Source: Lytechinus pictus (taxonomy: Eukaryota). Taken from it: a DNA stretch of 64,000 nucleotides. How positions within the stretch are numbered: position 1 is the stretch's first letter; every line of letters starts with the position of its first letter. Under the pieces are notes generated by a model, which saw only the letters and a program-made list of their open reading frames with translations, was not told where the DNA came from and did not search any database. Shown in pieces: positions 15,601 to 63,166 of this stretch. Location of the stretch: assembly GCF_037042905.1 (NCBI RefSeq), contig NC_087250.1, forward strand, positions 17,796,001-17,860,000, written 5' to 3'. A program made the position numbers and the translations under genes.

Positions 15601-15659
15601 ATACATAAAATAAAATGTAACAACATAGGAGCTGTGTGACAATCAGCTCTTTTTTTCAG

Positions 15660-22129: not shown

Positions 22130-22418
22130 CTAAGTGTCGTGAAATATGAATTCAGCTTCATGCCTTAACCCAACGGCCTCTAAAGCAAGTCGAAGTTGCC
22201 TAACCTGTTCACTAGGTCTGACACACTTTCTCCAGTCTTGAAGCATCTCTTTAAGACCTGACCTTGAGACATTTCTGGCCGAGGAGTCTGCTCTGACGAG
22301 GTATTTCTCCATTGATGAGTAGGAGAAACCGAGCTGGTAGCCAAGCTCACTTGCTTCTTTTATTCCACAGACTAAATCAATCAATACCTCTACCATGCTA
22401 TTCGATAATGGGCCTCTT
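22130..22418 (-). CDS. Terminal exon: death domain 5
   Basis: LSNSMVEVLIDLVCGIKEASELGYQLGFSYSSMEKY...LKEMLQDWRK...LRLALEAVGLRHEAE has the death-fold pattern; acceptor ttttag at 22419-22420. Confidence 0.85.
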
Positions 22419-25400
22419 CTAAAATAAGGAGTAATGAATGTGGATGAAACAAATTAATGAGAAAGCTCACACTGTCCGAGTTAAAACAGATACATAGAAA
22501 ACTCATCATTTTTTTTATCGTCTTTGATTTCAACGCCAAATATCATAAATTCAATGAAAGTGCAGGTCAACCGACAGCAATGCCATTCGTAAAGTTCCAA
22601 TATTTTCTTCCTAAAATGATGAAATCCAAGGAGAAAAGGGAAAATCGCCAACACAGATAAATAGGCACATGTTGAACACAATTCGTAATTTTCCATTTTG
22701 CACATAATTATGTTTCATCTATCTGTAGTAATTTATATTTGTACAAACTCTTTCTCGTCATCACAACCTGAATTTATTTTTTATTTAAACGATCTGCATG
22801 GTATAAAATCCATCCACAAAGTTGGAGCTACTCGTAATTGAAATACTGACGAAATTTACCACCCAATTCTAAAAAAAGTAATCATAAAATCAATTACAAT
22901 CGATATTTCATGGAATCTGTTCATATTCCCCTTTTCAGCAACTTTGCATGTTGTACCAAAATCATTTTGCGTATAATTTTACCTAGTAAGAAAGAAAACA
23001 AAAACACTGACGTAATCACTTAATAGCATTTGTTAAATGTCATATTTTTGAAATTTAAATAGCGATTTTTAAAAAGTCATTATTAAAAAGAAACATTTAT
23101 AAAGGTGATTAATTTGTCGCTATTTTATTTCTTTTTAATGGCAGCATTTTAAACTATTTTTGTTGTTGTTTAAAACTTGGTAAAGTTCAGACCTCATTTG
23201 TGTTGAAAGTTTGACATTGTCTTACCTTTGTACTTTTTCGTAGTCAGGTTCCACTGTTTAAAAAGAAAAAAAAAACGTATTTCTGTAATTTCTCCACGAG
23301 CTTGATAATTCATCATAAAATATTTATTTTCTCCATGTATATTTCGAGTTTTTTGTCATTATTAGCATTTTTTACGTGATACCATGCAAATAGAATGAAA
23401 TCAATATGATTGTTTGAGTAACCCTATATTCAAAGTACAATAAGAACTTCTTTTTTCGGAATACATACATGTATATAATGACTATAATTATGTTCGATGG
23501 TCTCTTTATTGTAAAATAACCTGTCTTCATTAAGATATATTTTTACACATACCTTCTTTAGAGATATTGATTTCTTGTTCTGCAAGTGTGGCCGGGCCTT
23601 GCTCAATGCAAACGCGAACATGCTTATCATCGGTTGAGGGTGGTAGATTGATATCTATAGTATTACAACATCCAGATAGTAAGGAACGCACATGAACCTT
23701 TTTGAAGAAATAGATTAATAACGGAACCTGAGTTAAAGTCATGAATTAGTCTGATAAAACTTATTTGTAACATTAATCTTCTACTATTCGACTTAGAAGA
23801 ACATTTCATCAGGCCTTCTTAATTTTTTTAGAGCATGGTATTAACCTCCTTTTAGGAAGAATGTAGCTCATTTGATAAGATTTGATATTTTAAACAGCAA
23901 ATTCCAGGGTGCATAGCAAATAAATATTACTGTCTAATGAAATGAACAGATTTTGGTAAATATGCTTCACATTTATTTCCAATAAAGTATATATTTGCCA
24001 CTTTAACTAAAAGGGTGTGACAGAAAAGACAACGTTTTTAGATGCGTACAGTTTCTCGAATTCTCTCCGGGCCAGTAAGACACGAAATCTTGATGTCATC
24101 TTCAGCAGATTTCAGATTGAATTTGATTGCCGTCGCGCCTTGGTAGACTGGTTCCGATAAGGTGTATTCCTGTCCTCTTACACTCTAGAAACAAACATAG
24201 TTGAAATCTAGATAACATGTGATTCTCCGTTTGGATAAAAGGTATGGTAATTCTTTCTCAAGTAACACTCATAAAACACACACATATAAGTATTATACAC
24301 ACATATGTTGCTGCTGCGCGATCAAAATGCCAGGTAATCGAGATAATCTTTTGTAGATGCGACAAGTTTTTCTTATATGATTTGATTAAAAGGTAAGAAT
24401 TTCCTCTCGTGTAATTGTTGTTCATGCATTGAATATGATTGTTTTATAATAAATGTAGGGCCTGTACATACTGTAGAGTCTGTGTTGCAAGGATGGGTTA
24501 TGTAGATTCGCAGAGTGTGATGTGAGGAGTTGCTGATGAAAAGAGGATGTGATACTTGACAGATGAATTGAACCCCATTGATGTCGTTTGAAGACAAAGC
24601 GAAGTATTGAAGATGACGTGTTGAGAAGGTAATCTTGTCTTCTGAGATCTCAAAATCTCTTGTCGATTCAGGAAGCAAAGTCCTGTACCCATATTCTCCT
24701 AGAATATGCAACGATAGACGAGAAAAATACTTCGTGTTAAAGCCAGTTTATCGCGTTGACAGCCATGTTAAGTAATAAAAATGACTTATGTTATTGACCT
24801 GATATACATTATGAGTCATACATTTAATATGTTAACTTGCTATACATTCAACCATACCATAAAACATTACTGTATTTTTATGTTTTATTTCTGGTGCACA
24901 AATGAAAAGCAAAAAGGCGACTGAATATGAATTTGAAAAGTTACACACCGACTGCCCAAATTTGACATCACACAATACAAGCAATTCCGATCACAAAAGC
25001 GTATACTACATAAACATTACCTGGTTCTATTTTGCTGTAAAGCTTCACACGCAAGTCTTGCTTCTTCTGCTGGTATCGATCTGAAGCAATGTAGTGTGGA
25101 AGCACTATAGTAGCAGGTTTGAGAAGATGATGGTTGAAGGAACATCGGATGGGTGGTGTTATAAGAACCTCCTGAGGATCCAGAGGAAACTTAGATGGAC
25201 TTCGACTGAGGATAGTGAGAGTAACGACTGATCTCATTCCTTTGGGGATTGCTCCTGATGGAATAGATACCCGGATATCAGGTTCGTCTAGCTTCAGGTC
25301 TCCACCATCATGATCAATGATGCCATGTGTGAAAGGATCCAAGAAACCTGGGTGGTTTGGTATTGCTGTTATAGTGAAGTAGAACATTTCGGGTCAGCAA

Positions 25401-28400
25401 GCAGATATGCAGATATTGCGGATTTTTCAAGAGCCGATTTTTGAATGTGTTACATTTGATTATTAAAACTAAAAATAACGTGATTGAGATAAAATGAGAC
25501 ATCAATCAATATGCTGTCTCTTAATTGAATTACAATAGTCTTATAATAACATGTGGCACTTTTCCTAATGGTAAAATGTCCATTCAAGAAATAAACATGG
25601 ATGAAGACAAATGTTGCCTTTGATTTCGACATGTTCGAATTTTATAGTTGAGTGCACAGGTATGAATAACGAACAAAAAATATTGTGCGTCTTTGCTACA
25701 AAAAGTATACTTATGATTTTTAAAATACACTTTTGATTTTAATATTTTCGTCCCATGACTGCTTAAACCTACCTCGGGCTATGTGATCTGCAGCATCGTT
25801 GAAATCAAAAGCTTGAACCATTTCAAGCAACCTCAGCCTTGTTCCTCCTTGCTTGGCCCATTTCTGAAGCATTTGTAGTACCATCCGACGTATCGAGGCA
25901 GGTTCAAAGGTCAAAGATGAAGCCATCACCTGAAGAATTTCAGAAGCTGGCAGATCCAACCTTTGAGAGAGGTCGATGAGGTCTGGAGTAGTCCGAATTT
26001 TGGCACAGATTTCACCAATACCTTTTTTATAGGGAACATAATGACATTGTAAGTTCATAGTGAATGACGACTCCTGTTTCCATTTTGCCGAAATATACAG
26101 TTTTACCATTACATTAAAAAATATATATATTTTGGCTAGTTGTCTATTCCATCCAACTTTAAAAAAAACGTGTTAAAAGCTATACCAAAAGCGAGTTTAA
26201 TAAAATTCAAGCTGTGATCAAACCTGGTTGAGCGTTTTCGATGTTGTATCCTTGAAGAAGCGTAGACACCTTCTCTTCCTTCTCCTGTCTTCCTAGACGT
26301 CTACACCACTGATGAAGGAGTTGCCATGCTAGTCTCTCCATTAATGCAGGGTCGCGAGGAGCAATGAGAACTATGATGTCATTAACGTCCAAACAAAGGG
26401 CTTTAGCTAGTTCTAAGGCCAACGTGACATTCGCCACCGGACGAACGACGCTACACAGTTCTGAATTACTTGGTGAACCTCCATACCCGTCGATGTCGAC
26501 AATAGTTTCATCTTTGTCTACGATTTAATAATATTTGGTTGGGTGAATGTTATTAGAAATTTCAATAAAGATCCGACAGTACTATATTGATACAACGTGG
26601 TGCAATTTTTGTATCTTGGTTTTGGTGCTATCGAAAACGCGTCTGATACATACAGTGCGTCCCACAAAAAACGAAACCGAGATTTATCGATGATTTATCA
26701 TAACTTATTCACAAATACAATAGACAAATTAACTACCATTGTAAAGCTTAGAATCTCCTTTTTAATCTGAAATTACTTAGATTATTTTTCATTCACGCAT
26801 GAGTGAGCAAAAACAATTTCAAGAGGGGATACCAAAAAGTCATTTGGCGGGCTGTATCTGGGTTTCAAAATCAAAACCACATTTTAAAAAAGTTCAATAT
26901 CCGCTCTTTAATTTGATACCTCAATTACAGAAAATGGTCAAGAAATAACAAAGTTCTGGTTATTTGAAATAAGGCTTGAATTTCAATAATTTCATAAAAT
27001 TAAGAGGTTCTACATGCTAGCGTTCAAACTCACTTGACACTCCCGTTTTGTTGACGATCAGCCATGCATTAAGTCTTTTGTTAACCATGCGATAGCTTCT
27101 GTTGGAAACGGGTGAAAACACGTTTGTTAAATGAAATTATGGAAATACAAGCATTGTTTCGAGGGATCATAACTTTCTTACTTCTTGACCATTTTTTGTG
27201 ATTAAGGTATCAAATAAAAGAGCAGATATTGAACTTTTTAGGCATGTGATTTTCTTTTTGAAATTCAGATACCCCCCGCCAAATGAGTTTTTGGTATCCT
27301 TTCTTCAAATTGTTTTTGCTCACTCATGCGTGAATGAAAAATAATATAAGTAATTTCAGATGAAAGAGGATATTCTAAGCTTTACATTGGTAGGTCAATT
27401 GTCTATTGTATTTGTGATTAAGTTGTGATAAATCATCGCTTAATCTCGGTTTCGTTTTTTCTGGGACGCACTGTATATACTTTTTGATTCGTTACTATGG
27501 CTTCTTTCCTCTTTTTTGTATTAGCCCCTCCCCCCTCTCTCTCTCTCTCCACCCCTCTTCATCCATACCCTCGCTTATCATTCATTCCTACCTGACTCTG
27601 AGTATTCAATGATCTTCCAATCTTCATTCTCTTCATCTTCATCCTCATCTGGTTCTTGAGGTGATCGGTCAGAATTCACATCCGGATCAAGAGGGGTCAC
27701 ACCATCACTATTCTCATCATCTGCATGATATGATTTATAGCCAAAGGGTTTTGTTGCATTCTTTTAAATATTACCTGATAATAACCACTGAAAACTCACC
27801 GCTTGTGCCGTAAGAAAGTAATAGTTCGGTGTGTTTGCACAACCCCCCCCCCCCCACTAAAGATTGCAATTTTTATTTATAACCCTCATTTTTGACGAGG
27901 CCAATTTCGACCAATTCTACCTCTTCTCAACAATTCCTGTCGACGAGAACGAAATATATGACAAGTTGACAACAATAGTAAAGCCCAGACCAACCTTCAA
28001 AGTTAAAAGAGCTTGACTTTCAATTATGATGCGTGTTATTTTTTTCTAAAAAGCACCAAGCAACATTTAAATGTATAAATTAGGATGTGATTTTACTCAT
28101 TATGCTGTAAAAAAGGGATCGTGTAATAAACCTTTTTATTTAAACATTCTAGTTTAGTAGTCGATTTCAGTTCACTAACGTATTAAAATGCGTTTAACTG
28201 AACTGAAATCAACTTCTGAACAAGAACTTGTCGCCACATTTTTCGTTTTGTGTGCATTTCCTTTTCATTAAATGATTTTAGATACCATTCACGTCCGTCA
28301 CTTTTGAAGCCTCATTTAAAGATTCCCAGACGGTCTTCAATTTCTCATCCGGTTTATCTGATGATCTTTGCGATGCTTTCCACAACGAGAGCATTTGAAT

Positions 28401-31400
28401 GTTAGCATCCTTTCTATTGTACAGGGATCGATGCTCGATGTGATGTAACTCTAGATCGTCAAATCCCAGCTGCCTGCCAATCTCATAGAATTTATCTTTG
28501 TTAATGTGACGGGAAATTTTCAATAGCATGCAGTCGGGAATCTCTCTGTATCATTGGATAGAAATCATGAAATTCACTATCAGTATTTGTTACCATCATG
28601 ACATACATTAACTTATAATAAACAAAATTTAAGAAAACTGACAAGTTTGTGTTATTGTAATTTAAAAGACAAATTAAAGTTTAAACTAATTTACATTAAT
28701 TTTCAGTGTTTTCAGTAAAGCAAACTAGTCACACATATCATTTATGAAGTTGCTGCTGTTTTTTTTCATTTGTCTGCAATATACAGTGTGTCTCTAAAAA
28801 AAGTAAACCCAACTTCAACGGCAAATTTTCAGAAAACTAAAAAATATTTACACATTATTTTTTCATAGTTAGATAGTCCAATAAGTCTTCTGTCCAATTA
28901 CATCACTTAGGTTATCTAACTCTCATGCATGACTGAGCATGATTCAACTTAGTGAACTGGTGTCAAATCATCTCTGTGGCAAGTTATTTCTTGTTATTTT
29001 CATGCATTCAAGGCCTATTTGAAGTTAAACTCAGTGGTTCCGTGATCAGCATACTTTCTCACATTGTACCAGATGGCCCTTTTGTTGGAGGCTGCCTCTC
29101 GGGGAACTGCACCCGAAAAGCCTCTTGAACTTCCACGAAACTTCTTGTTTCCTGGTATTGAGTTACCAAGAATACTCTCTGCTCAATTGTCAACTGTACC
29201 ATGTTTGGAAAGCATGTGAAGTGTGCCTGTGTTAGGAACAACCTTTGCTGAAGTTGTTATGAAATTATAGGCCTAAAATGTGACCAAAATTTAACTTCAA
29301 ATAGGCCTTGAATGCATGACAATAGCAAGAAATAACTTGCCACAGTGATGATTTAATCATAGGCCTAACATGTGACAAACATTTAAGGACGTTCCACAGT
29401 TATATTTGTGCGCATTATGATCTGCGCATAGTTTACACTCTGCGCGCTGACGTCACAATGGATGAACAGGTGATTAATTAGCTGCGGGTATGAGCTGATT
29501 TTTTTCATCTTCTGCACTTTAACTGCAGATCCGATGCGTTATTTCATGAAGCTAAAAAATTGAATTATTCCATGGACCATTCAAAAAAATATTCTCTATA
29601 ATTTCAAAATACTTTACTCTGCAGTGCTGCCAAGAAACACGAATATTACCCCGAGTTTGAATAAATGGTAGAGTGGTTTTGATTTTTTCTTCACATAGAT
29701 ACTAATCATTCGGCCCATTTTTGGTGTTTTAAAAAGCACATTTGCTCTAATAAAAATGCTGATAGTTTAAAAACAAGCACATGAACCCATATTTTTTAAT
29801 GTTTGTACCTCTTAGGTATACCTTCCTCTACAACTCTGCAAATTTTGGTGAAAATGACATGGATTTTTAATAAAGTGCAGCATTTATTGTACGTTTGTAG
29901 TTTGTTACTGAAATTTTACATTTTTTAGATTGGGATTTTGTTATCTTTTACGCCATTTTTAAGAACTGACAGTGCTGTTAAACTTAAAATTGCAAACAAA
30001 TAGCACTATTAATATATTCTCCATTCTAACGATACAATTATTAACTCTCTTGCGAAATTTGATGACTTTTTCATGTATTTTGACTGAGTAATGGAGGTTT
30101 AAACTCATTGTAGTAATCTTGGGCGGTCTAAAAATGCCAAATTCTTTTGAATGCGCAATTCTTAAGAACATCAATTTGGGTGAACTTTGAAGCTCTATGG
30201 CAAAAAATCAAGCACATGGACCTATGTTAATTTTTGCATATTTCAAATATTAAGGTTCTAAAGTATCTATGTGCAAAGTTTGGTGAAAATGACATGGATT
30301 TCACTTTAACTGTGGAACGTCCTTAACTTCAAATAGGCCTTGAATGCATGACAATAACAAGAAATAACTTGCCACAGTGATGATTTGACACCAGTTCACT
30401 AAGTTGAATCATGCTCAGTCATGCATAAGAGTTAGATAACCTAAGTGATATAATTGGACAGAGGACTTAGTGGACTATCTAACCATGAAAAAATAATGTG
30501 TAAATATTTGTTAGTTTTCTGAAAATTTGCCATTGAAGTTGGGTTTACTTTTTTTAGAGACACGCTGTATAACGTACTGCATACTGAAGAAACTTACTCA
30601 GTCGGTTTAATATCTTGATGGACGTAGCCGAATCCGAGATGAGAGCAATTTTAAGAGAAGAGAAAAATAAATTTATAGAAGAAAAATTACTGATAAACTT
30701 AATTATTAGTACGCTGCCTAAATGTCAGCAGGTATGTTGTTTCTCATGCAAATCTTTTTGATCTTAAGATACAAACGAGATAAGGAATTTTGGCATGTAA
30801 TTATACAAGAGTTACAGTAGTACCACTTAAGAACAATTTCCAAATACCCGTACTGTCAAATTTTCTAGCATGAATCTTGAAGTATTTTTTTGAAACTAGT
30901 AAAAAAATCATTACTCAACCCTTTACCGACGATGAAAAACTAGACTAAATTTATAATTTTATCCACAAACGAAAATAAAGGATAACGCTTTTTAATTTGA
31001 ATGGTAATGTCAACTATTTTTTTTGTGATAAAGAAAAAATAAACTAATGCTTGCAAAATATGTACTGTTATTAAAAGAAATTGTCAAATATCCGTACTCT
31101 CCATTTTATAGCAATATTTCCGATTTCTTACAAACGAAGATGCAGTTACATCATGCAGCTGAAAGTAATTATTCTGAAACTAGTAACACAAATAATTCTT
31201 ATCAATCTATTTAGACATGTTGGATACGACAGGCATCATAAAAACAAATAATGAAACCAAAGTAAAACCAACAAACACTAACTCAAACCTGGGAAGGTTG
31301 TATCATTTGAAGATGAGTTGAATGATTCTATAATTGTGATGAGAGTATTCTTTGCTGCTTGGTTACATGATTGTCTCCCCCTCCATGCCAGTAGCATGTC

Positions 31401-37400: not shown

Positions 37401-40400
37401 AGGTCATGGTAAACACAATACAGAGGAACAAACCTGTTTCTTAGCCTTGTGTTGTGATCTCGGTTATTCAAATTCAGTTTAAAATGGTTTGTTTTTAGAT
37501 TAAAAGAATCAATCAAGGCATAAAAACGAATGACTATAAGGCATAGCATAGTGTACAATATAACACAACACAAACGCAACAATTATTACATAGCTTAAGA
37601 TAAACAAATTATTACAGAACATTCACCATACGACACGACGTCAGCGAACTTAATCACAGAACACATATAACATAAAAATCCGCTAATATATAGAATACAA
37701 AGTTTTATAATCAATATGAATCATATTGATATATGAACAATTAAAAAAAGTCAATGTTAAAATCAGAATGTTGATTTCCAGATCGTTAAAAATTATTAAG
37801 AATGGGAATGAATGGGAAGGTAAGATAGAAGGTGGAGTTGATAGGAATAAGGGAAATGTATTGAGATATTTGATATAAAATTACATAGGAGGTAAAGTAT
37901 TATGAATCTTAAGAATAACGAAAGTGAGAAGAAGAATAAGAACAAAAAGAGAAGAAGTGGAAGGGCAAGAAGAATCAAATGTAGAAGAACAATACCATAT
38001 TAAACTAGACGAAACAAGTAAGTGAATGAAAAGACAGAAAAATTAAAATACAAAGTAAATATACATATAGTACGAATATAGGTACAAACCACTTGTTCCT
38101 AAAGTACACATTACAGTGCTATGTTTTTGGATGAACGGCCAATAATATACATATTAACGTGCAGTCATGTGCGACGGCTTCGGTGACGATTTCGTGTTTT
38201 GTATTTCAGGAATGCTCTTACCTCTAGTAGAATGTACATCATCCAAGGAAGTGGAATTTCTTTTCGGTATCCAACGCAAGGTGTTCCTTTTGTGTTTCTT
38301 ACGTAACTGCGTATTTCGAGTTTTCTCGTTGCGCTAACAAGCATATCTTTTCCATTCTCGGCTCAGCATTATTAGCTCGCGCACGTTTGGAAACCAGCTC
38401 CAGATTTTCTCTACGAGCCCTGCTACCGTATTTTTTCCGTCAAGATAGCGGCATGGACGTGGACGAGACCACGCCCGGCCCAGCCACGTCTCACAACATT
38501 TTACAAGCCATCCAGGCTCTTCAACGAAAGGTGGACTCTGCCTCCCGGAAATCTGCCAAGCCCGAAAGCTCCCCCTCCTTCAAGAGTGAGGGAAACAAGC
38601 AGCAATACGACCACGCCCAGAAAATTTTTCAGTGCATTGACGACGCTCTACATTCGCTGCAGGATATCGATATCGAGGCCGCAAAGGAGCGTCTACTCGA
38701 GGCATCCGCCCTCCTTACTCAGAGGCAGAAACTGATTCGCCTGGCAGACCGCTCCCCTTTGGGCTGGGCCACAGTCAAAGAGTATATCGCAGACGACCTC
38801 GCGGAGAATTCCGATGACGAAAAACGTCTCAGAAAGGCGGAGAAGGCTGCAGCCACCAAAAGGGCCGAAACAGCCAAAAAGTCGAAGATTCAGCCCCCCT
38901 TCCGGGCCCCCCGCTCTTCTGTACCTCCTCGCATTATGCCTGGGACTTTTCGTCGCTTCAACCCCTACCGTTCTGAAACCCGCATCTGCTTCCAGTGTGG
39001 CATCTCCGGTCACGTCCGCCCCAACTGCCCCGCTCTGCGAGCCGCTAGAAGTGCCGTCAACCAGCAACAGCCATCCAAGGCCCCCTTCTAGTGCCCCACC
39101 CGCCTCATCTCTCGACCCGCCTTCAGGCGTGCAAGGTAAATTGAGAAAATGTTTATCATTCTGGAAAAGTGAATTAAAAGCTTCCAAGTTTGTTTGCGAT
39201 ATTATCGAGTACGGTTATAAAATCCCTTTTGATAAAGTACCTCCCCCATTTTATAGCAAGAATAACAAGTCCAGTTTGGATCACCCAGATTTTGTTGAAA
39301 GTGCCATCTCTGAATTGATACAAAACAGATGTGCAGTAGAAGTAAAGCAACGCCCTTATTGCTGTAACCCTCTAACCGTTGCCGAAGGCAAAAAATTACG
39401 CCTAGTTTTGGATTTACGTCACACAAATCAGTTCGTTGCACAATCTAAATTTAAATACGAAGATCTCACTCATATTGCGCAAGTGCTTGGTTCCGAGCAA
39501 TTTTATTTCTCATTTGATTTAAAGTCCGGCTATCACCATGTCGACATATTTCCCCCCCACCAGCAATTTTTAGGGTTTTCTTGGACCCATTCTGATTCCG
39601 TAGTACGTTATTATGTATTCACTGTACTGCCTTTTGGGCTCAACAGCGCATGTTATTTGTTCACTAAATTGACAAGGCCACTAGTGTACCACTGGCGTTC
39701 ACATGGTATAATTGCTTACATGTATATTGATGACGGCCTCATCATTTCACCGTCTTATGAATCCGCTTTAGCAAATTTGGCAGTAGTAAGGGAAACTATC
39801 CGGCGCAGCGGTTTCGTTCCCAATGAAGCAAAGTGTGCTTGGAACCCATCTAGTAGAATTCTTTACTTAGGATTCCTCATCGATTCACCATCACGCTCGA
39901 TTTTTGTACCTCAGTCGAAACTAATAAACTTAGTTCAGAGCACTGACGAGCTTGTGTCATTTTCTAAGGCTGCTGCTCCTGTCCCAGTGAGAAAATTGGC
40001 CTCATTCGCCGGACACGTCATTTCAATGAATCTCGCTCTCGGTCCGGTGGCGAGATTGATGACGCGCGCAACTTATCGCGCAATCGAATCTCGGTCTTCA
40101 TGGTCCGATTTGATTTTTATTTCCGAATCTGTGCTCAATGAACTGGCTTTTTGGTCTGCCAACATTTTTTCGCTTAATGGATTTGCATTTTCATATCGCC
40201 TTGTACCGACCATGCAAATATTTTCTGACGCCAGCGATCTTGGTTTTGGTGCTCATGTCCAAGATCATTCACACCTGCGCGTCCACAGTTTGTGGTCACC
40301 TTCTGAGAAACTTCAGAGTTCCACTTGGCGCGAATTGACCGCTGTTTATCGCTCACTCAAAGCATTTTCCAGCCATTGCTTTAACCAAAAAATCAAGTGG

Positions 40401-43400
40401 TTCTCTGATAATTCCAACGTGCCTCGAATCATTAACCATGGTAGTGTTAAGTCCGATCTTCATCGTATCGCGCTTGATATTTTCTCTTACTGTCAGTTGC
40501 ACGATATTGTTATTTCACCGGAATGGTTACCCAGGAGAGAAAATATTTTAGCAGACAAGATCAGTAAATATCGCGATTATGACGACTGGTCTATCGACGA
40601 TCATTCTTTCTCACAAGTAGACAACTTGTGGGGGCCACATACAGTCGATAGGTTTGCCTCCCCCCACAATGCCAAACTTCCCAATTTTAACGCAAGATTT
40701 TTTTGCCGGGGCGTTTCCGCCGTGGACGCATTTTGTCAAAATTGGGAATTTGAAAACAATTACCTCTGCCCGCCAGTATCGTTCATTATTCAAGTAATAA
40801 AGCGCATGGCTGCTTGTAGCGCTGTCGGCACGCTGATAGTTCCCCGTTGGCCTACCTCCCATTTCTGGCCTTTCATTTGCCCCGACGGCATCCATTTTGA
40901 TGCGCACATTCACGATTGGAGGATATTAAATGCTTCATTTACTCCCTCCTCCTTGCACAAAGACAAAGATGTGTTTTGCGAGCAACCGTCATTTTTTACC
41001 CTAGCATTACGATACGATTTTAAGCGCTCGCCTAGAACTTCAAACACCGGTTTTTGTTCTGCTGACTTGGGTTATTGCCCAAATTGTATTTGAAGCAAAC
41101 GAGTCCTTATCATGATCAAGTACTCATATTACGATATTAGCTTTTTGCATTATACAGGCCGATTTGTGCGCCCTTCGTTCCTTTTGTACGATACAGGCCG
41201 ATTTGCGGGCCAATAATATTATTTTGTTCTATCGAGGCTGATTTGCGTACCTATCATTATCTCTATTTATTCTATCCAGGCCAATTTGCGTGCCTAGTCA
41301 CCCCCCCCCCCCGTTTTGTGATATACAGGCAGATTTGCATGCCTAGGTGATGTGCAGCCCTTGCTTGCATTGTAATCACACCTTGCTTAGGTCAATTTAA
41401 GTTCCTGGCAACTTTTTACCCTGTTATGCCTTCTTTTGCGTTTCTCGATAGCTAATAATCATTGCCCAGCTCTGACCAAACATGTTCAATCTTTTGTCAT
41501 TGTTGTTATTTTTCAGTATTTGTCACCTGAGGTAGATAAAGAAAGGAAATTAACTTTCCGACGTTGTAACACATAGGAGGAAAGTGGAATTTCTTTTCGG
41601 TATCCAACGCAAGGTGTTCCTTTTGTGTTTCTTACGTAACTGCGTATTTCGAGTTTTCTCGTTGCGCTAACAAGCATATCTTTTCCATTCTCGGCTCAGC
41701 ATTATTAGCTCGACTTCCCACCCCCCCTTTTTTTGTTCTTACGGCTTTTCCCTCACCCCCCCCCCCCGCCCCTGGTCAAACTTGCATTACTTAGTATTCA
41801 GGAGCAAGGAGCAAGGGAGTGCGCCCTCGCTCGGTACCCTGGGACGCAACCACGTTTCCTCCATGAACTAATATGGGGGTTTTTCGTGGCCTCCGAGTAC
41901 TAGTGTCTCGTACACTAGTCAGGTACTGGGCGCCTTGCATCCTCCTTATTCGTTTCCTGTCGCATTGTTATTCTTTTGATTAAATCTAGGTCTTTTGGAT
42001 ACCTACTTTTGAAAAAGTACGTATTAAGCAGCTTTTGGTTCTACTCATTACTTTGTTTCTTGAAATTTCTCACTCTGCTTACTGTACAGTATGTATGTCA
42101 GTCTTTCGACTGATTTCTTTTTATTAATTTTGTCTAATTTTCTTGCTCTCATGAGCTAACTTTCAGAAACATGGTCCGCCAAGCAAGACTCCATCTCCGA
42201 TCCGCATCTACGCAGCCTAGCCGCTGATGTTCTTCCATCCCTACTCATGTCTGCCAAAGCTTCATCTACCACATCAAAATACAAATCCCGTTGGGACAAA
42301 TGGGTCCAGTGGGCGAGCTCCAAATCTCTACCCACATTTCCAGTCCAAGCGTACCACCTCTGTCTATACCTTTCCCATCTGTCTTCCGTTAGCGGGGCCA
42401 AGACTCTAGCAGATTCCCTCGTCGCGTCAGTGAAATGGGCGCACAGTCTCGCAGGCCTTCCTTCACCCACAGATGACCCTATGGTAAAAACAGCAGTGCA
42501 GGGGTATAACCGGACTCACTCTTCCCCTGTTTGTCGTAAGGAGCCTGTTACACCAGAAATCCTGTCCCATCTTCGCGCATCACACGGTCAGCTCAATGCA
42601 TCTTTAGCTGATCTACGCATTTTGTTTATATGCTTCATTTCTTATGCTGGATTCCTACGCTTCGACGACCTTAGCAGGATAAGAAGGAAGGACTGCACTC
42701 TTCATCATGACAGGCTAGTCCTACACTTACCCTCTTCTAAAACCGATCAATTCCGCCAAGGCAGAGATGTTACCATTGCTAGGACATCCAACCCGACCTG
42801 TCCCGTCATTATAGCCGAGCGATATTTCGCAGCTTTAGGCGATCCTCCTCATTCTCACCTACCAGTGATTCGCAGGCTTGCTCGTTCCAAACGCGGTCTA
42901 GTCGCCACTTCTCACGGCCTAAGTTACACCAGAACTCGCGAGATTGTCCTGGAGGCGTTGAAGCCCCTTGTTCCCGACGTCTCTAAGTTCGGTTTGCACA
43001 GTCTCCGGTCGGGTGGAGCTTCATCCGCTAGTAACAATCGAGTTTCTCCCTTTCTGATTTCACAACATGGTCGTTGGAAGTCAGACAAAGCCAGGGACAC
43101 ATACATAAAATCGGACGCAACGTCAAATCTTCTTCCTTCACAATCCCTCGGGATTTAAGCTTCAAATCCCAATCCTTTATCATTGTTGTCGAGTTAATTT
43201 TCTTGGCTGTGTTTTTGCTTATGCATACTTTGCAATGTTCATATCATTCTGAACAAATATGAGTCTATTGAATAAACAGCGAGCTAATAATCATTGCCCA
43301 GCTCTGACCAAACATGTTCAATCTTTTGTCATTGTTGTTATTTTTTCAGTATTTGTCACCTGAGGTAGATAAAGAAAGGAAATTAACTTTCCGACGTTGT

Positions 43401-46400
43401 AACACATAGGAGGAAAGGTAATCTGCAGTAAGCAATCAATACAAAATCATTCAACTTCTAATATCTTGAATTATATTTACTTCATCAACTGAAATAAAAT
43501 CATTTAGAATATTCAAAAGAAAACCATAATTTTTCGATGGATTTCTGATAATAACGCATCAGTGAAAAGTATTCACATATTATGTGCCATTTCAAATTGC
43601 ACACGATGTTCTTTAAAGCTACACGGGCTAATCAAACGAAGAGAATGTTGAAAGGACAATTCAATCCCAACAGAAAATTGGTTTGAATGATAAGATAAAC
43701 TCCACACTAGCATAACACTGAATATTTAATCAAAATCGGGTTGGAAATAAGGATTTCTCTTTTAAAGTTTCGCTGGATTAAAAATAACATTTGTACAATA
43801 TGCACACTAGCGTACCTATGGGGGGGGGGGGTAGACTGCCCCCTGATGATTCACAACCCATGCAAGGGACGTATCCCCCCCTGACGAGTCACAACTGATC
43901 CCTGACGGGCCACCAGTGGCCCCCTCCTTTGAAGTTGAAGACCTTTTTTTTCTTTTGCTTGTCAATTTTTTTTTTTGGGGGGGGGGGGGGGGGTGCGAAA
44001 TGTCCTTTATATCCTGTTGAGGACCCTTTTTTCTGGCACGAAATCCTATATTTGTGGTTGATGACCCGTTTTTTTTCTTGTCAATTTTTTTGACGGACGA
44101 ATTTGCCCCCCCCCCCCTGTTGAAAATCCTAGGTACGCTACTGAATATGCACATTCTGGTCGCTATGCAAAAGAAGGAACTGATAATGTCACCCACTTGC
44201 TATTTCCTTTGTATTTTATTGCATAAAATATTCTAGATTTTCTCCTCATTCTCATATGAAGCAAGGTTTCATTCCACTCCGAGCATGTGGTATTACCATT
44301 GCTTTAACGATTTTATGGTTCGGTCAAGATGGTCCTCATTGTCAAATCTGTAAAATTGAAATATTACACATTTCAAACAATAAAAATATAGAAGGAAACG
44401 TTAGGGACATCACCGACTCTTTCATACATGTCACTGATTTGTGCATATAACTTTTTTAGGAAAAATAAGCGAAACTTCAAAATATCATATAATTTTACAT
44501 TCAATTGTAATAAAATTTCCAATGTTGTGCATGTTTGATTTTCCTCTATTGAAAATACATGTACATCAAAACCCGTTTGTACTGGAAATTTAGTTTTAAG
44601 TAATTGTTCACCTTGCCAATATCATCTGTCTGATCATTTCATCCTTTGCATAGTGGATTGGTAAGCAACCTGCTTCATCCTTAATATCAATCCTGGCTCC
44701 ATGTTCTAAGAGATAGAACACCAATGCCTTTTCAGGAGATAACCTGCCACTGTAGTATTCTTTGGATACCTGCAACGGATGATTAATTTAGTTTGTGTGG
44801 TAATTATAGTATTTAAACCTAATTAGTCCATAAAGTGTTTGATGCCATTAATATATGTGATAGGCTCAATGATAAAGCAATTTATGGTATGAATTAAATA
44901 ATTACTTTCTCACAAATTTAATAAAGTGAAAAATAGTCTTTTATATGCTTTTTGTTAATTCTTGGTAAGTTTGTATCGTATTGCAATAAGCAGCGGATGC
45001 CAGAAATGCCATGATAATCGTACTTCGTTGACTTAAATGTTTTAAAATCAAAGTGTATACTGAAAACTGAGGCAAATGTATTTTCCAAGACTAACCTTTC
45101 TGAGTGTTTCGGTGTCTTCAACATTCTTGTCCTTTTGGTAGCATAATTTGATAGCTTTATGAAGACATGTCTGACCGTCATTAAACTGTACATTGATATC
45201 AGATCCGTAAGCTATCATCCTCTCAATAATAGATGTATGTCCGTGCATCACAGCTAGATGGAATGCTGCTGAATCATTCTGGATTGACAAAATTATATAA
45301 ACGTAGTAGGAAAATTAGCATTCTTGTAAATTGTAGGGAAAAAAGCATTTATTTAGTAAAATCTTCCTTGTATATCAAACTGAAATAATTAATTCTTTGT
45401 TTGAGTGGTTATCAAACTACTCTTTTTCTGTTCTACTGTTTTCCGCCTTTTTTGACCAAGCATGTTTGCAAAATATACATGAGTATTCTATGCAGTTTAC
45501 AAGGCTCCTACATTTATAATATTGGATGTTACTTGCAGAATGATCAAAATGCAACTTTTCAGCTATTTATAGCTCTGTCAGAGAAAATTTTCGGAATTTA
45601 TGAATTACCTACCTTAGCATTACCGCTGTCGAAAATAAGACCAGCAATATATCTGTGCCCATGTAAAAGCGATTGATGTAAGGGTGTCTGACCGTGAATG
45701 TCTTCTACATCACAACCTGCTCCCCCTGTAAGTAGGACTTTAACAACGTCAATGCAACCATTCTGAACGGCAATATGTAAGGCAGTTGTCCCTTCCTTGT
45801 CGCCCTTATCGACCATAGCCTCTTCACTGATCAGATATTTGATGACGTCAATATGACCATTGGGAGCAGCACTGTGTAATGCAGTCCGACCATTATTATC
45901 CTCCTTATTGACCTCAACTCCTTCACTGATCAGATATTTGATGGCGTCAATATGACCATTGGAAGCAGCACTGTGTAATGCAGTCCGACCATTATTATCC
46001 TCCTTATTGACCTCAACTCCTTCACTGATCAGATATTTGATGGCGTCAATATGACCATTGGAAGCAGCAATGTGTATTGCATTCCGACCATTATTATCCT
46101 CCTTATTGACCTCAACTCCTTCACTGATCAGATATTTGATGGCGTCAATATGACCATTGGAAGCAGCAATGTGTATTGCATTCCGACCATTATTATCCTC
46201 CTTATTGACCTCAACTCCTTCACTGATCAGATATTTGATGGCGTCAATATGACCATTGGAAGCAGCAATGTGTATTGCATTCCGACCATTATTATCCTCC
46301 TTATTGACCTCAACTCCTTCATTGATCAGATATTTGATGGCGTCAATATGACCCATCTCAGCAGCAATGTGTAATGCAGTCTGACCATCATTATTCCCCT

Positions 46401-48603
46401 TATTGACCTCAGCTCCATTACTGATCAAACATTTGATGACTTCAATATCACCATCATCAGCAGCAATATGTAATGCAGCCCAGCCATTACTATCCTCCTT
46501 ATTGACCTCAACCCCTTCACTGATCAGATATTCGATGACGCAAATATGACCATTGGAAGCAGCACTGTGTATTGCAGTCCGACCATTATTATCCTCAACG
46601 GCCTCAGCTCCTTCACGGATCAGAAATTTGATGACGTCAATATGACCATTGGAAGCAGCACTGTGTAATGCAGTCCAACCACTTTTATCTTTCTTATATA
46701 CCTTAGCTCCTTCACCGATCAAATATTTGGTAATTTCAATATGGCCAAACCTAGCAGCACTGTGTAATGCAATCCGACCAATATTATCCTCCTTATTGAC
46801 CTCTGCTCCTTGACTGATCAGATATTTTATGACGTCAATATTACAATTGGAAGCTGCAATTTCTAATGCAGTCCTACCGACTTTAGCCTCCTTATTGATA
46901 TCTGCTCCTTTACTGACCAGATATTTGATGACGTCAATATGACAGTCGGAAGCAGCAATGTCCAATGCAGTCCGACCATCTTTAGCCTCCTTATTGACAT
47001 CCGCTCCACCACTGATCAGATTGTTGATGACGTCAATTTGAGAATTGAAAGCCGCCCTGTGTAATGCAGTCCACCCACTTTTATCGGTCTTGTTGACCTC
47101 AGCTCCCTGGCTTATCAAATATTTCAAGACGTCAATTCGACCAAACCTAGCAGCACGGTGTAATGCAGTCCAACCATCATTATCCACCTTATCGGCCTCA
47201 GCTCCTTGACTTATCAGATATTTGATGACTTCAATATGACCATTTTGAGCAGCATTGTGTAATGCAGTCCGACCATCTTTATCCTCCTTATTGACCTCAG
47301 CTCCTTTACTGATCAGATTTTTGATGACGTCAATATGACAGTCGGAAGCAGCAATTTGTAATGCAGTCCGACCAACGTTATCCTCCTTGTTGACCTCCGC
47401 TCCTTCACTGATCAGATATTTGATGGCGTCAATTTGAGAATTGAAAGCAGCCCTGTGTAATGCAGTCCGACCAACTTTATCCTCCTTGTTGACCTCCGCT
47501 CCTTCACTGATCAAATATTTCAAGACGTCAATTCGACCAAACCTAGCAGCACGGTGTAATGCAGTCCAACCATCATTATCCTTTTTATTGACCTCAGCTC
47601 CTTGACTTATCAGATATTTGATGACTTCAATATCACCATTTTGAGCAGCATTGTGTAATGCAGTCCAACCATTATTATCCTCCTTATTGACCTCAGCTCC
47701 TTTACTGATCAGATTTTTGATGACGTCAATATGACAGTCGGAAGCAGCAATTTGTAATGCAGTCCGACCAACGTTATCCTCCTTGTTGACCTCCGCTCCT
47801 TCACTGATCAGATATTTGATGGCGTCAATTTGAGAATTGAAAGCAGCCCTGTGTAATGCAGTCCGACCAACTTTATCCTCCTTGTTGACCTCCGCTCCTT
47901 CACTGATCAAATATTTCAAGACGTCAATTCGACCAAACCTAGCAGCACGGTGTAATGCAGTCCAACCATCATTATCCTTTTTATTGACCTCAGCTCCTTG
48001 ACTTATCAGATATTTGATGACTTCAATATCACCATTTTGAGCAGCATTGTGTAATGCAGTCCGACCATCTTTATCCTCCTTATTGACCTCAGCTCCTTTA
48101 CTGATCAGATTTTTGATGACGTCAATATGACAGTCAGAAGCAGCAATTTGTAATGCAGTCCGACCAACGTTATCCTCCTTGTTGACCTCCGCTCCTTCAC
48201 TGATCAGATATTTGATGGCGTCAATTTGAGAATTGAAAGCAGCCCTGTGTAATGCAGTCCGACCAACTTTATCCTCCTTGTTGACCTCCGCTCCTTCACT
48301 GATCAAATATTTCAAGACGTCAATTCGACCAAACCTAGCAGCACGGTGTAATGCAGTCCAGCCATCATTATCCTTTTTATTGACCTCAGCTCCTTGACTT
48401 ATCAGATATTTGATGACTTCAATATCACCATTTTGAGCAGCATTGTGTAATGCAGTCCAACCATTATTATCCTCCATATTGACCTCAGCTCCTTCACTGA
48501 TCAGATATTTGATGACGTCAATATGACAGTCGGAAGCAGCAATTTGTGATGCAGTCCGACCATTATTATCCTCCTTATTGACCCCAGCTCCTTGTCTTAT
48601 CAG
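22130..48603 (-). CDS. Ankyrin-repeat / ZU5-UPA / multi-death-domain protein (5'-incomplete, ~2229 aa if the split exon is restored; interrupted by a retrotransposon)
   Basis: Hand-spliced exons, all GT-AG and phase-consistent: 48603-45613, 45278-45096, 44769-44612, [43422-43415 + 38248-38222], 37366-37034, 36684-36437, 33729-33601, 33029-32867, 32534-32489, 31575-31289, 30613-30598, 28545-28286, 27720-27592, 26517-26224, 26021-25773, 25365-25021, 24698-24472, 24184-24050, 23697-23553, 23253-23226, 22418-22130 (TAG). Total 6690 nt with no internal stop seen. Confidence 0.85.
23226..24698 (-). CDS. Exons for the end of ZU5-2, UPA-like domain 2 and linker (24698-24472, 24184-24050, 23697-23553, 23253-23226)
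   Basis: Beta-rich ORFs (DKITFSTRHLQYFAL..LRIYI) with phase-consistent splice sites. Confidence 0.7.
25021..25365 (-). CDS. ZU5 domain 2 exon
   Basis: GIIDHDGGDLKLDEPDIRVSIPSGAIPKG...LITPPIRCS...LLKPATIVLPH is a classic ZU5 signature. Confidence 0.9.
25773..26517 (-). CDS. Death domains 3 and 4 exons (26517-26224, 26021-25773)
   Basis: LELAKALCL...LAWQLLHQWCRR and LIDLSQRLDL...MVLQMLQKWAKQGGTRLRLLEMV..F.FNDAAD are helical death-fold patterns. Confidence 0.75.
26653..27473. mobile_element. Tc1/mariner-type palindromic MITE
   Basis: TA-cagtgcgtccca...tgggacgcactg-TA with long inverted arms. Confidence 0.9.
27592..27720 (-). CDS. Acidic linker exon
   Basis: DDENSDGVTPLDPDVNSDRSPQEPDEDEDEENEDWKIIEYSES, phase 1-1, GT-AG. 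Confidence 0.75.
28286..28545 (-). CDS. Death domain 2 exon
   Basis: IPDCMLLKISRHINKDKFYEIGRQLGFDDLELHHIEH...ANIQMLSLWKA. Confidence 0.85.
28784..30567 (-). mobile_element. Internally deleted Tc1/mariner-type transposon with N-terminal HTH remnant
   Basis: TA-cagtgtgtctctaaaaaaagtaaaccc... with a ~250-bp inverted copy ending ...agagacacgctg-TA. ORF remnant MVQLTIEQRVFLVTQYQETRSFVEVQEAFRVQFPERQPPTK at 29059-29202. Confidence 0.85.
29387..30322. mobile_element. Kolobok-like non-autonomous element nested in the Tc1/mariner element
   Basis: TTAA-ggacgttccacagtta ... taactgtggaacgtcc-TTAA. Confidence 0.8.
31289..31575 (-). CDS. Death domain 1 exon
   Basis: DIDIRTIAQTMDVNQFYDLGIALGFTIAELDRVEY...QQATYDMLLAWRGRQ. 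Confidence 0.88.
31723..32274. repeat. Inverted minisatellite-type MITE built from ttccgaaggttcg / cgaaccttcggaa units
   Basis: The left half has tandem ttccgaaggttcgt and ccgaaaacgaaataaggttcg units; the right half has their reverse complements. Confidence 0.85.
32489..36684 (-). CDS. Exons for the end of ZU5-1, UPA-like domain 1 and linker (36684-36437, 33729-33601, 33029-32867, 32534-32489)
   Basis: PPYCRLYKKHLELYIDHCAEWWVLIP..RLMCTPYVP..FAVNLQFRNDLPG; SVPFNVETKGGDVTITC; phase-consistent splice sites. Confidence 0.75.
33904..35926. mobile_element. TA-flanked non-autonomous DNA transposon containing a nested GC-rich MITE (34249-34417)
   Basis: TA-cacaacaaaaaaagtaagtccccct ... aggggggacttactttttttacttgtg-TA; nested caggggccgcggaa...ttccgcggcccctg. 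Confidence 0.8.
37034..37366 (-). CDS. ZU5 domain 1 exon
   Basis: LEDHGISMYLPPGAV...ESVICYGIRCDPHTLIFNQPVKINIPH is a ZU5 signature. Confidence 0.88.
38453..39091 (+). CDS. Gag-like protein with CCHC zinc knuckle
   Basis: FKSEGNKQQY...RQKLIRLADRSPLGWATVKEY..DDLAENSDDEKR, then CFQCGISGHVRPNC. First ATG at 38453 (ORF open from 38387). Confidence 0.9.
   Translation: MDVDETTPGPATSHNILQAIQALQRKVDSASRKSAKPESSPSFKSEGNKQQYDHAQKIFQCIDDALHSLQDIDIEAAKERLLEASALLTQRQKLIRLADRSPLGWATVKEYIADDLAENSDDEKRLRKAEKAAATKRAETAKKSKIQPPFRAPRSSVPPRIMPGTFRRFNPYRSETRICFQCGISGHVRPNCPALRAARSAVNQQQPSKAPF
38814..41093 (+). CDS. Reverse transcriptase - RNase H - adenine methyltransferase-like polyprotein
   Basis: RT: KLRLVLDLR, FDLKSGYHH, LPFGL, YIDD. 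RNase H: FSDAS, RE, SDN, AD. C-terminal DRFAS...DAF.QNW..NNYLCPP MT-like domain. Overlaps gag in the +1 frame. Confidence 0.93.
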   Translation: MTKNVSERRRRLQPPKGPKQPKSRRFSPPSGPPALLYLLALCLGLFVASTPTVLKPASASSVASPVTSAPTAPLCEPLEVPSTSNSHPRPPSSAPPASSLDPPSGVQGKLRKCLSFWKSELKASKFVCDIIEYGYKIPFDKVPPPFYSKNNKSSLDHPDFVESAISELIQNRCAVEVKQRPYCCNPLTVAEGKKLRLVLDLRHTNQFVAQSKFKYEDLTHIAQVLGSEQFYFSFDLKSGYHHVDIFPPHQQFLGFSWTHSDSVVRYYVFTVLPFGLNSACYLFTKLTRPLVYHWRSHGIIAYMYIDDGLIISPSYESALANLAVVRETIRRSGFVPNEAKCAWNPSSRILYLGFLIDSPSRSIFVPQSKLINLVQSTDELVSFSKAAAPVPVRKLASFAGHVISMNLALGPVARLMTRATYRAIESRSSWSDLIFISESVLNELAFWSANIFSLNGFAFSYRLVPTMQIFSDASDLGFGAHVQDHSHLRVHSLWSPSEKLQSSTWRELTAVYRSLKAFSSHCFNQKIKWFSDNSNVPRIINHGSVKSDLHRIALDIFSYCQLHDIVISPEWLPRRENILADKISKYRDYDDWSIDDHSFSQVDNLWGPHTVDRFASPHNAKLPNFNARFFCRGVSAVDAFCQNWEFENNYLCPPVSFIIQVIKRMAACSAVGTLIVPRWPTSHFWPFICPDGIHFDAHIHDWRILNASFTPSSLHKDKDVFCEQPSFFTLALRYDFKRSPRTSNTGFCSADLGYCPNCI
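42167..43158 (+). CDS. Tyrosine recombinase
   Basis: Catalytic set R (GFLRFDD), K (SKTDQ), HxxR (HSLR), HGRW, Y (DTYIK). First in-frame ATG at 42247; the frame is open from 42160. Confidence 0.93.
43805..44143. mobile_element. hAT-like MITE nested in an older degenerate element (about 43650-44550)
   Basis: TIRs cactagcgtaccta / taggtacgctactg; 8-bp TSD aatatgca on both sides. Confidence 0.85.
44612..45278 (-). CDS. C-terminal ankyrin-cap exons (45278-45096, 44769-44612)
   Basis: AFHLAVMHGHTSIIERMIAYGSDINVQFNDGQTCLHKAI and KALVFYLLEHGARIDIKDEAGCLPIHYA. Confidence 0.88.
45613..48603 (-). CDS. 2991-nt exon encoding about 30 ankyrin repeats
   Basis: 33-aa G-x-TALH-xAA..G...IKYLISxGAEVNK repeats; strong acceptor ttttctccttag at 48604; donor GTAGGT at 45612. 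Confidence 0.95.
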
Positions 48604-48749
48604 CTAAGGAGAAAAGAAAAAGTTAGCCTGTTTTAGAAAATCTATAGGCAAAAAAGCATTTACTTTCATGCATATCAAACGCTTGCCAGTTAAATATGTT
48701 TGCCTAAGAAAATTTCAAATATGCGAGTTTCCAGAACAAGCTAAGTTTT

Positions 48750-51340: not shown

Positions 51341-51576
51341 TAATCCTTTGGGTTGGCATTGACATAAAGATTGACACATGTTGGGAAGTCCACAGGTAGT
51401 CCTTGACTTTGCCAATTTGACGGAGATGGTCAAGGTTGGGACACTGCCCAGTAAAATGTTCCACAGTCTCGTCGGCAGATTTGCAAAGAGGGCAAGTTCG
51501 ACTGGATGATTTCTTCAGCGTGAAAAGACGACACTGTGTTAAGTAGGTAGCTGTGAGGAGTTGAGCTCTCACCACA

Positions 51577-56441: not shown

Positions 56442-56767
56442 CACCACACTGTCTTCGTATGACAGGAGAGGGTACACTTTTCGGATACAGGAATTTAGCA
56501 GAAGGACGTATACAATCCTGCCAGTACTTATGAGATGGCTTGAAAAGGATTCATTGACGTGTGTTGTGTTTGGTCAGCAGGTTCACTTTGTAATTGACCA
56601 ATCACTTCCAAGATAAGTATACGGGAGGATTTGAAAGAAGACTGTGAAGATCAGGAAGATCGTACTTCTTTGCTATGTCCTGCAAGATGAGTATTGTAGG
56701 AGAGGGCTTCTAGGAATATTCTAAACTCGAAGCGACTGTGATCGAGGTTGAGGAGTTGACCTACAAG

Positions 56768-63000: not shown

Positions 63001-63134
63001 CAATACTATTATCCTTTTTTACCCCATGATGATTTAATGGTTTTATTAGAGATTACATTCAAAATGAATTCATGAATAAATAATCCACTTCAATGTTCAA
63101 GCTTAAGGATATCCACACACCCACCACGCATATT

Positions 63135-63166
<32 letters not shown>

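Follow-up and report, generated by a model that had tools for sequence, protein, structure and literature searches.

The analysed window, a 64,000-nucleotide stretch of Lytechinus pictus DNA (NC_087250.1, positions 17,796,001 to 17,860,000; G000:C6:17796001-17860000 in a genome of 812 Mb), carries a minus-strand gene of 21 exons (48603-22130) that joins a long array of ankyrin repeats (ANK) to two ZU5-UPA modules and several death domains (DD). The gene model combines open frames with mapped homologues and splice signals. All 20 unbroken exons had AG/GT ends and compatible phases, the last exon ended in a stop codon, and the architecture ANK(~30)-ZU5-UPA-DD-DD-acidic-DD-DD-ZU5-UPA-DD is real. 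An original prediction for this stretch had 21 exons splicing in frame into 2,229 amino acids (aa); 20 of them proved clean, but the complete frame was obtained only when the two halves of exon 4 were joined across a retrotransposon of 5,166 bp. Because the retrotransposon splits this exon, the protein of exactly 2,229 aa requires the rejoined halves. The view of this copy as an intact gene was not supported: exon 4 is split and the start codon is missing. The exons are listed below in the order of the protein.

45613..48603, minus strand: exon 1, 997 codons, 30 ankyrin motifs at 33-aa spacing; Pfam Ank in 29 stretches
45096..45278, minus strand: exon 2, ankyrin repeats; Pfam Ank_4 E 1.4e-8
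44612..44769, minus strand: exon 3, presumably a degenerate last ankyrin repeat or cap; 43 genome matches, no Pfam match
43417..43422, minus strand: exon 4, 5' half of 6 nt that follows the native acceptor; joined to the 3' half in paralogs
38222..38250, minus strand: exon 4, 3' half of 29 nt, bearing the native donor; placed from paralogs
37034..37366, minus strand: exon 5, ZU5-1; Pfam ZU5 41.9 bits
36437..36684, minus strand: exon 6, end of ZU5-1 (H-C-A replaces H-F-S) and start of UPA1
33601..33729, minus strand: exon 7, UPA1
32867..33029, minus strand: exon 8, UPA1
32489..32534, minus strand: exon 9, 46-nt linker
31289..31575, minus strand: exon 10, DD1; Pfam Death 26.6 bits
30598..30613, minus strand: exon 11, 16-nt microexon; best candidate against homologue peptides
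28286..28545, minus strand: exon 12, DD2, tandem duplicate of DD1; Pfam Death 26.8 bits, DD1-DD2 P 99.9
27592..27720, minus strand: exon 13, acidic linker; 25 D/E against 3 K/R in 60 aa
26224..26517, minus strand: exon 14, DD3, divergent five-helix death-fold-like unit; profile match, no Pfam match
25773..26021, minus strand: exon 15, DD4; Pfam Death E 5e-4, profile P 96.2
25021..25365, minus strand: exon 16, ZU5-2; Pfam ZU5 52.1 bits
24472..24698, minus strand: exon 17, end of ZU5-2 (H-L-Q replaces H-F-S) and start of UPA2
24050..24184, minus strand: exon 18, UPA2
23553..23697, minus strand: exon 19, UPA2
23226..23253, minus strand: exon 20, 28-nt linker
22130..22418, minus strand: exon 21, DD5 and stop codon; Pfam Death E 1e-3, homologue Z 11.9 to the PIDD death domain

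An intron of the gene also contains a 16/42-bp tandem array (31728-32270).

Domain assignments and the self-cleavage motif

The predicted number of about 30 ankyrin repeats agreed with the motif and Pfam counts of exon 1, to which the ankyrin repeats of exon 2 are added. Both ZU5 domains scored above the Pfam cut-off of 21 bits, and UPA2 was recognised by its fold (match to CARD8 7jn7, Z 9.3, root-mean-square deviation (rmsd) 2.7, 112 aligned residues). The second half of the predicted pair of ZU5-UPA modules therefore stood, but UPA1 is identified weakly, by its position and a slight likeness to UPA2 (E 1.5e-4), and no Pfam UPA match was obtained for UPA1 or UPA2. The fold model was that of the L. 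variegatus homologue P0006, with a mean predicted local distance difference test score (pLDDT) of 61.5 and a predicted template modelling score (pTM) of 0.34. It contained five helical units, those of DD3 and DD4 at pLDDT ~72-87, and its best folds were UNC5b, ankyrin-B and AnkB/spectrin. A complex of ZU5-2/UPA2 with DD5 from P0006, predicted without alignments, scored 0.01 and speaks neither for nor against the closed form of UNC5, in which the death domain is docked on ZU5.

Against a Pfam Death cut-off of 22.6 bits, DD1 and DD2 scored above, and DD4 (20.5 bits) and DD5 (19.3 bits) slightly below. DD5 of a close homologue aligned with the PIDD death domain over 91 residues (rmsd 2.2; Z as listed), and a profile built from 62 outgroup death domains, with DD3 and DD4 kept out of the seed, matched DD4 with E 2e-9 and DD3 with P 90.6, E 1.3e-6 and a score of 34.7. 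None of 120 shuffles reached the latter score (column maximum 16.0, block maximum 24.1), and the reversed alignment gave 9.4. Five helices were present in both models of DD3, that within P0006 and that of the isolated unit (pLDDT 71.8, pTM 0.47), and a Pfam Death match fell on DD3 in two of 25 family members (E up to 0.5). No death domain was among the matches listed for the isolated model, the best being an unrelated protein (Z 5.2, 40 residues), and Foldseek gave nothing at E 0.001; as each match covers no more than half of it, this model may have an open shape and speaks neither for nor against a death fold. Profiles of DD3 and DD4 returned nothing significant among PDB sequences (RIPK1 for DD4 at E 0.4), and leads for DD3 in the ESM Atlas all stayed below 0.9. 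Within its own family DD3 was weakly similar to DD4 and DD5 (E ~9e-4) and had no match to DD1 or DD2. On these Pfam, fold and profile results, four of the five predicted death domains (DD1, DD2, DD4 and DD5) are solid, whereas DD3 is probably a divergent death fold, as suggested by its profile match.

Pfam scans of P0173, P0010, P0006 and the exons found no NACHT or NB-ARC domain and, because NACHT is lacking, the NLR-likeness put forward in the original prediction is unsupported in the strict sense. No membrane segment was detected (maximum hydropathy 1.63), and Pfam gave no match to an Ig/TSP ectodomain.

A PIDD-like mechanism had also been proposed. The His-Phe-Ser motif is needed for PIDD1 activation (PMC9162469, within its section 6), and cleavage of CARD8/NLRP1 needs the second Ser of SFS, as described in part of PMC3210808. 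In the present family, HFS-bearing relatives aligned ungapped to H-C-A in ZU5-1 and to H-L-Q in ZU5-2. The nucleophile position was Ala in 26 of 26 genomic loci of ZU5-1 and Gln or Glu in 33 of 35 rows of ZU5-2, the remaining two rows being models of one outside relative gene with HFS intact. The catalytic serine is retained in P0178, and a genome search with the HFS-bearing relative P0052 recovered only this family's ZU5-2 among the 81 of 238 candidates scored. Because the nucleophile residue is lost in both ZU5 modules, a self-cleavage mechanism of the PIDD1 or NLRP1 type appears unlikely here.

A small chance was left to cleavage of ZU5-1 by a nucleophile displaced by one residue, an event that would free the ankyrin array from the signalling half, because Cys, Ser or Thr is invariably found one residue earlier: the residue after His was Cys in 18, Ser in seven and Thr in one of the 26 loci, and these are the nucleophiles used in such reactions according to section 6 of PMC9162469. 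However, the register usually puts His before this nucleophile, and a Phe-to-His change abolishes cleavage in CARD8, PIDD and Nup98 (part of PMC3210808). The ungapped alignment moreover places the residue on the buried Phe position, and the 26 loci have one shared origin. Such a shift is very improbable.

The exon 4 insertion and the state of this copy

The insert in exon 4 is antisense to the gene and has the following parts.

38251..43416, plus strand: PAT-type tyrosine-recombinase retrotransposon, 5,166 bp
38249-38379, 41450-41584, 41582-41712 and 43282-43417: its split direct repeats A1, B1, A2 and B2
38231-39091: gag frame
38736-41093: reverse transcriptase (RT)/RNase H/methyltransferase frame
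42160-43158: recombinase frame

The A repeats were 100% identical, as were the B repeats in two ungapped pieces with a small gap between them. The gag, RT and recombinase frames were open (RVT_1 E 7e-18; Cre match E 1e-6), and the methyltransferase gave a weak Dam match (E 0.003). Split direct repeats, RT, a tyrosine recombinase and a methyltransferase are given as PAT-type criteria in the relevant part of PMC4157794, and by these features we identify the insert as a young PAT-type DIRS element. An Ngaro identity was rejected because of the methyltransferase match and because the internal repeats precede the recombinase. The genome held 11 long copies at 97-100% identity, the exon 4 copy included; the one on C11 was 100% identical, the other nine had ~145 extra bases near window position 38835, and the element looks recently mobile.

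In paralogs exon 4 measures 35 nt. It was found whole in six of 11 loci and had no match in the other five, and in three close paralogs (86-94% identity) it ran uninterrupted across the insertion site. With exon 4 skipped, the predicted product stops at aa 1117. Extension of the exon into the element, from the native acceptor to a donor inside the element, was rejected as it stops at aa 1124. The sole route that keeps the frame with the element present uses a cryptic acceptor at 38259, in the element's end, and gives 2,230 aa; this acceptor is without a pyrimidine tract. No contig across either transposon junction was among those listed for the DNA-like run X5.

The 5' end is also altered. The frame of exon 1 opens in the middle of a repeat, without a start codon, and its first Met is aa 43 (at 48477), while eight of nine paralog frames read open the ankyrin exon with their own Met and a capping sequence. 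A high-copy repeat starts ~150 bases upstream of exon 1. The start flank of the neighbours matched the cluster at five places, in one case over 71 bases only; none of the six candidates, all scored, lay upstream of this copy, and window 48607-64000 showed no trace of their start region. The region around exons 13-16 was 99.6% identical to one neighbour, introns included, compared with 83-87% for the exon 3 and exon 6 regions, a pattern that identifies this copy as a mosaic of its neighbours.

Three RNA runs were compared with the range 32330-45790, using ~6% of each read; exons 10-21 lie outside this range. Depth was almost entirely on intronic repeats. The exon 6 bin had depths of 1.3, 0.7 and 0, with the first mates all on the plus strand, as expected of minus-strand RNA. 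A search of sequencing runs showed no RNA run containing the locus among the matches listed.

We consider this copy to be probably disabled, by the transposon insertion and the lost start. Four features weigh against this: a good-looking acceptor precedes exon 1, Met43 stands in a good context (A at −3, G at +4), the cryptic acceptor 38259 is in frame, and the exons other than exon 4 are free of stops. It is therefore possible that the copy is still translated or that it lost its function only very recently. Continued production of a near-full-length protein, from Met43 or from a 5' exon not yet known and by way of the cryptic acceptor, would draw on these same features and on the open route to 2,230 aa, but that acceptor, poor in sequence, competes with an intact native one, the conserved 5' flank is missing and the three runs contained no supporting reads, so that such an outcome is rather improbable. 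In annotation this copy should carry a 'disrupted' flag, and functional work is better done on an intact neighbour than on this locus.

Elsewhere in the window, inspection of open frames by eye showed stop-ridden LINE-type reverse-transcriptase/endonuclease fragments upstream of the gene (48750-55700 and 60100-61300) and tandemly repeated transposase-like fragments (1-9000). Short plus-strand discoidin (F5/8)-like frames (15300-16600) possibly belong to a neighbouring gene.

The echinoid family and its ankyrin array

In line with the original prediction, the gene is not single-copy. The genome contained 25 complete collinear copies in tandem clusters on four contigs, together with 16 partial groups, a complete copy being defined as exon 3, exon 6, DD1, DD3, DD4 and DD5 in order. 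Matches kept for this count were 38/43 for exon 3, 26/41 for exon 6, 28/53 for DD1, 27/27 for DD3, 28/28 for DD4 and 29/38 for DD5, the dropped rows being weak or cross-domain. Several family copies contained stops or split exons. The L. variegatus NCBI model P0173 (XP_041467271.1) was colinear over aa 931-2229 (82% identity, 1,302 columns, six gap columns) and had the identical architecture and exon joins, including an intact exon 4, with ~8 ankyrin repeats. By spanning both halves, it supports at the family level the predicted single gene.

Similar uncharacterised predictions, also foreseen, exist in echinoids: XP_041467271.1, XP_041452873.1 and XP_063960372.1, and the halves XP_071479624.1 and XP_011684014.1. 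The last carries the label 'ankyrin-3-like', and UNC5 is the automatic name of some S. purpuratus relatives; both names mislead. Relatives of the ZU5-2 exon were Lytechinus or Strongylocentrotus by name in 26 of 27 matches (best 95% identity). In a taxon survey, in which 30 of 150 listed representatives were looked up, all those named at family-level scores were echinoids, and sea stars and hemichordates shared ZU5 or DD modules only. Among the titles and abstract openings listed for ZU5, death domain or ankyrin in sea urchins and echinoderms, none described the family, although the 2006 sea-urchin immune and apoptosis surveys and their supplements may list such genes, and passages of PMC8260672, PMC8195603 and PMC10855541 do not describe it. 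The component domains and the repeat-ZU5-UPA-DD order have precedents. No account of the doubled module, of five death folds or of a recombining array within a multigene family came to light in that literature.

Two Diadema proteins had the order ANK-ZU5-1-UPA1-DD1-DD2-acidic tail, and an S. purpuratus protein the order ANK-DD3-DD4-ZU5-2(HFS)-UPA2-DD5. The family may thus have arisen by fusion of two such genes, with fission or truncated models as the other possibilities. Two transcription units at the locus, an ankyrin-ZU5-UPA-DD-DD gene followed by a DD-DD-ZU5-UPA-DD gene, are scarcely credible: each half resembles a separate predicted protein of other urchins and junction reads were absent from the RNA range, but neither a stop nor a start lies between the halves, the phases match, single NCBI models span the join (P0173, P0029, P0030, P0006) and the order is constant in 25 copies.

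More distant relatives were also seen. The S. purpuratus NACHT protein P0187 has a ZU5-2-related module C-terminal to NACHT, in an NLRP1-like order, and related death domains occur in an urchin NLR and in a HOIP-like ligase. One such RBR ligase, P0111 of Diadema setosum, bears four death-domain-like repeats. The hemichordate Rel/NF-kB proteins P0133 (Ptychodera flava) and P0149 (Glandiceps talaboti), with the order RHD-IPT-ZU5-UPA-DD, an intact H-F-T and no ankyrin repeats, may be self-cleaving forms of NF-kB. Within the genome, a sixth cluster gene (G000:C6:18.21-18.23 Mb) shared the ankyrin exon and exon 3 (98%) and then continued with a different, 27%-identical ZU5-end exon. The cluster at C8:33.5-33.9 Mb shared exon 3 and weak ZU5 matches, without the death domains of this family, and includes an open frame of 9,098 aa that encodes ankyrin repeats, at G000:C8:33869550. 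More than 25 ZU5 matches at G000:C8:39.8-42.4 Mb and C37 formed a second large tandem array, which lies outside this family.

The predicted variability of the repeat array was borne out by both length and sequence. Ankyrin frames of cluster members ranged from 315 to 2,520 aa (150 of 1,902 candidates scored), and the array consists of near-identical repeats with a few hypervariable surface positions. Among 58 distinct repeats from three neighbouring genes, entropy peaked at repeat positions 3, 5, 10, 13 and 14, followed by 2, and positions 2, 3, 5 and 10 were in the top eight of all three subfamilies. The set for the binding-face test, fixed beforehand, comprised positions 2, 3, 5, 13, 14 and 33, which we take to be the randomised positions of DARPins. 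At these positions pN (non-synonymous differences) was 0.40, compared with 0.09 in the framework; pS (synonymous differences) was 0.16 overall and 0.30 at the binding-face codons. Under GY+F1X4, omega at the six codons was 2.35, 1.27 and 1.04 in the three subfamilies, with framework values of 0.85, 0.39 and 0.49. Exons downstream of the array were conserved (dN/dS 0.14-0.62). The randomised positions of DARPins form their binding surface, as stated in part of PMC8683736. The dN/dS check found omega at the binding face higher than in the framework; it exceeded 1 significantly in one of three subfamilies, and in a model-dependent manner. Apparent frameshifts were present near the ends of three of the nine ankyrin frames read.

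Candidate function and comparison with known systems

We give about an even chance to the reading that the intact members are cytosolic sensor-scaffolds under birth-and-death evolution. The long solenoid of ankyrin repeats, which unequal crossing-over homogenises and reshuffles, would present a variable binding face; its pattern is visible in the repeats, and its ligands could be foreign or altered-self. The two ZU5-UPA units would act as uncleaved structural hubs of the UNC5/ankyrin type rather than as self-cleaving switches: the motif is lost from both, and they might escape cleavage and restrain the neighbouring death domains at rest. Ligand binding or clustering would then expose the tethered death domains, which at their high local concentration could seed an oligomer with adaptors, leading possibly to caspase or NF-kB signalling; this step is suggested by the behaviour of death domains in other systems. 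The family turns over by birth and death, as in this mosaic copy, which lost its start region and gained a retrotransposon. The immune role and the nucleation of death domains in cis are putative. Echinoderm immunity features expanded TLR, NLR and SRCR families. A more specific version is offered only tentatively: urchin intracellular immune receptors without a nucleotide-binding switch, encoded by dozens of genes, in which recombining DARPin-like ankyrin arrays would serve as a germline binding library for a preloaded multi-death-domain seed, fused from two older ankyrin-ZU5-UPA-DD genes with the self-cleavage sites retired.

Several results weigh against a sensor function. Omega above 1 was significant in one subfamily only, that with the value of 2.35 (2dlnL 6.7, F1X4). 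There the F3X4 fit stalled at its starting values, and for the other two subfamilies it gave 1.36 and 0.47. In the nearest subfamily, framework omega (0.75-0.85) was indistinguishable from neutral, and the selection tests are inflated because the repeats recombine. Support for DD3 comes from its profile only, and the NLR and HOIP links are weak similarities of 17-43 bits. In the RNA-seq check none of the 15 joints shown was an exon junction, 72 further joints not being shown, and the bins of exons 1, 2 and 5 had near-zero depth in the three runs.

A non-immune adaptor resembling ankyrin or the UNC5 tail, with variable membrane or cytoskeletal targets (e.g., in gametes or development) and structural death domains, is unlikely, yet it fares best among the other accounts of the family. 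The best folds were UNC5b and ankyrin-B, and both modules are without the cleavage motif, which to our knowledge is also absent from UNC5b and ankyrin-B. An ankyrin-repeat gene shapes the urchin apical tuft, according to part of PMC10855541. On the other hand, the ZU5-ZU5 tandem of ankyrins is absent, and housekeeping adaptors are not usually found as 25 copies in tandem, often damaged and differing in the number of repeats. Less probable still is a decoy or brake, whose divergent tethered death domains would soak up adaptors or pathogen effectors; the divergence of DD3 and DD4 and the loss of the catalytic serine that P0178 retains would suit it, but DD1, DD2 and DD5 are ordinary death domains. 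A largely neutral expansion of recombination-prone tandem genes, under relaxed selection and with redundant function, is improbable to a further degree. It would account for the stops or split exons, the apparent frameshifts and, for the nearest subfamily, a framework omega close to 1, but three subfamilies concentrate their variation at the same positions of the repeat, purifying selection acts on the framework of two of them, and the DD/ZU5 exons have dN/dS < 0.65.

The original prediction was thus partly confirmed in what it observed and partly supported in how it interpreted the gene. If the sensor-scaffold reading is true, the family would represent animal use of the strategy of fungal NLR repeats, i.e., diversification of a binding face, without an NTPase, and it would provide a natural test of whether several tethered death domains in one chain lower the threshold of signalosome assembly.

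Among known systems, UNC5b (PDB 3g5b) was the top Foldseek match (E 2.4e-9), with ZU5-UPA aligned over 209 residues (Z 10.1, rmsd 7.8); the second module has the UNC5 ZU5-UPA fold, and the first UPA is weaker. UNC5b is autoinhibited, as described in part of PMC3210808. Unlike UNC5, the urchin family has no ectodomain or membrane segment and combines two modules and five death folds with an N-terminal ankyrin array in a multigene family. With PIDD1 it shares a repeat domain, ZU5, UPA and DD, and DD5 matches the PIDD death domain; PIDD1, however, has leucine-rich repeats and a tandem ZU5-ZU5, whereas the urchin proteins have N-terminal ANK and ZU5 domains separated by UPA and four death folds, and have lost His-Phe-Ser twice. 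Ankyrins likewise place an ANK array before ZU5, UPA and DD, and ankyrin-B (PDB 4d8o) was the second-best fold (E 2.4e-8); in contrast to their ANK-ZU5-ZU5-UPA-DD order, the urchin family has a variable array in one exon, no ZU5 tandem and extra death domains. Other genes account for the strongest ZU5 matches of the genome (83-91 bits). The FIIND of NLRP1/CARD8 also combines ZU5-UPA with a following death fold, and UPA2 matches CARD8. UPA promotes death-fold filaments in NLRP1/CARD8 (PMC11874512, in part), but the urchin family is without the SFS/HFS motif, CARD and NACHT. Compared with fungal NLRs, it has no NACHT/NB-ARC, its repeats are N-terminal, its output would be death folds and its function is putative; with HET-E and its relatives, as portrayed in part of PMC13449251, it shares near-identical repeats in which a few positions are hypervariable, exchange of repeats, turnover and copies broken by transposons.

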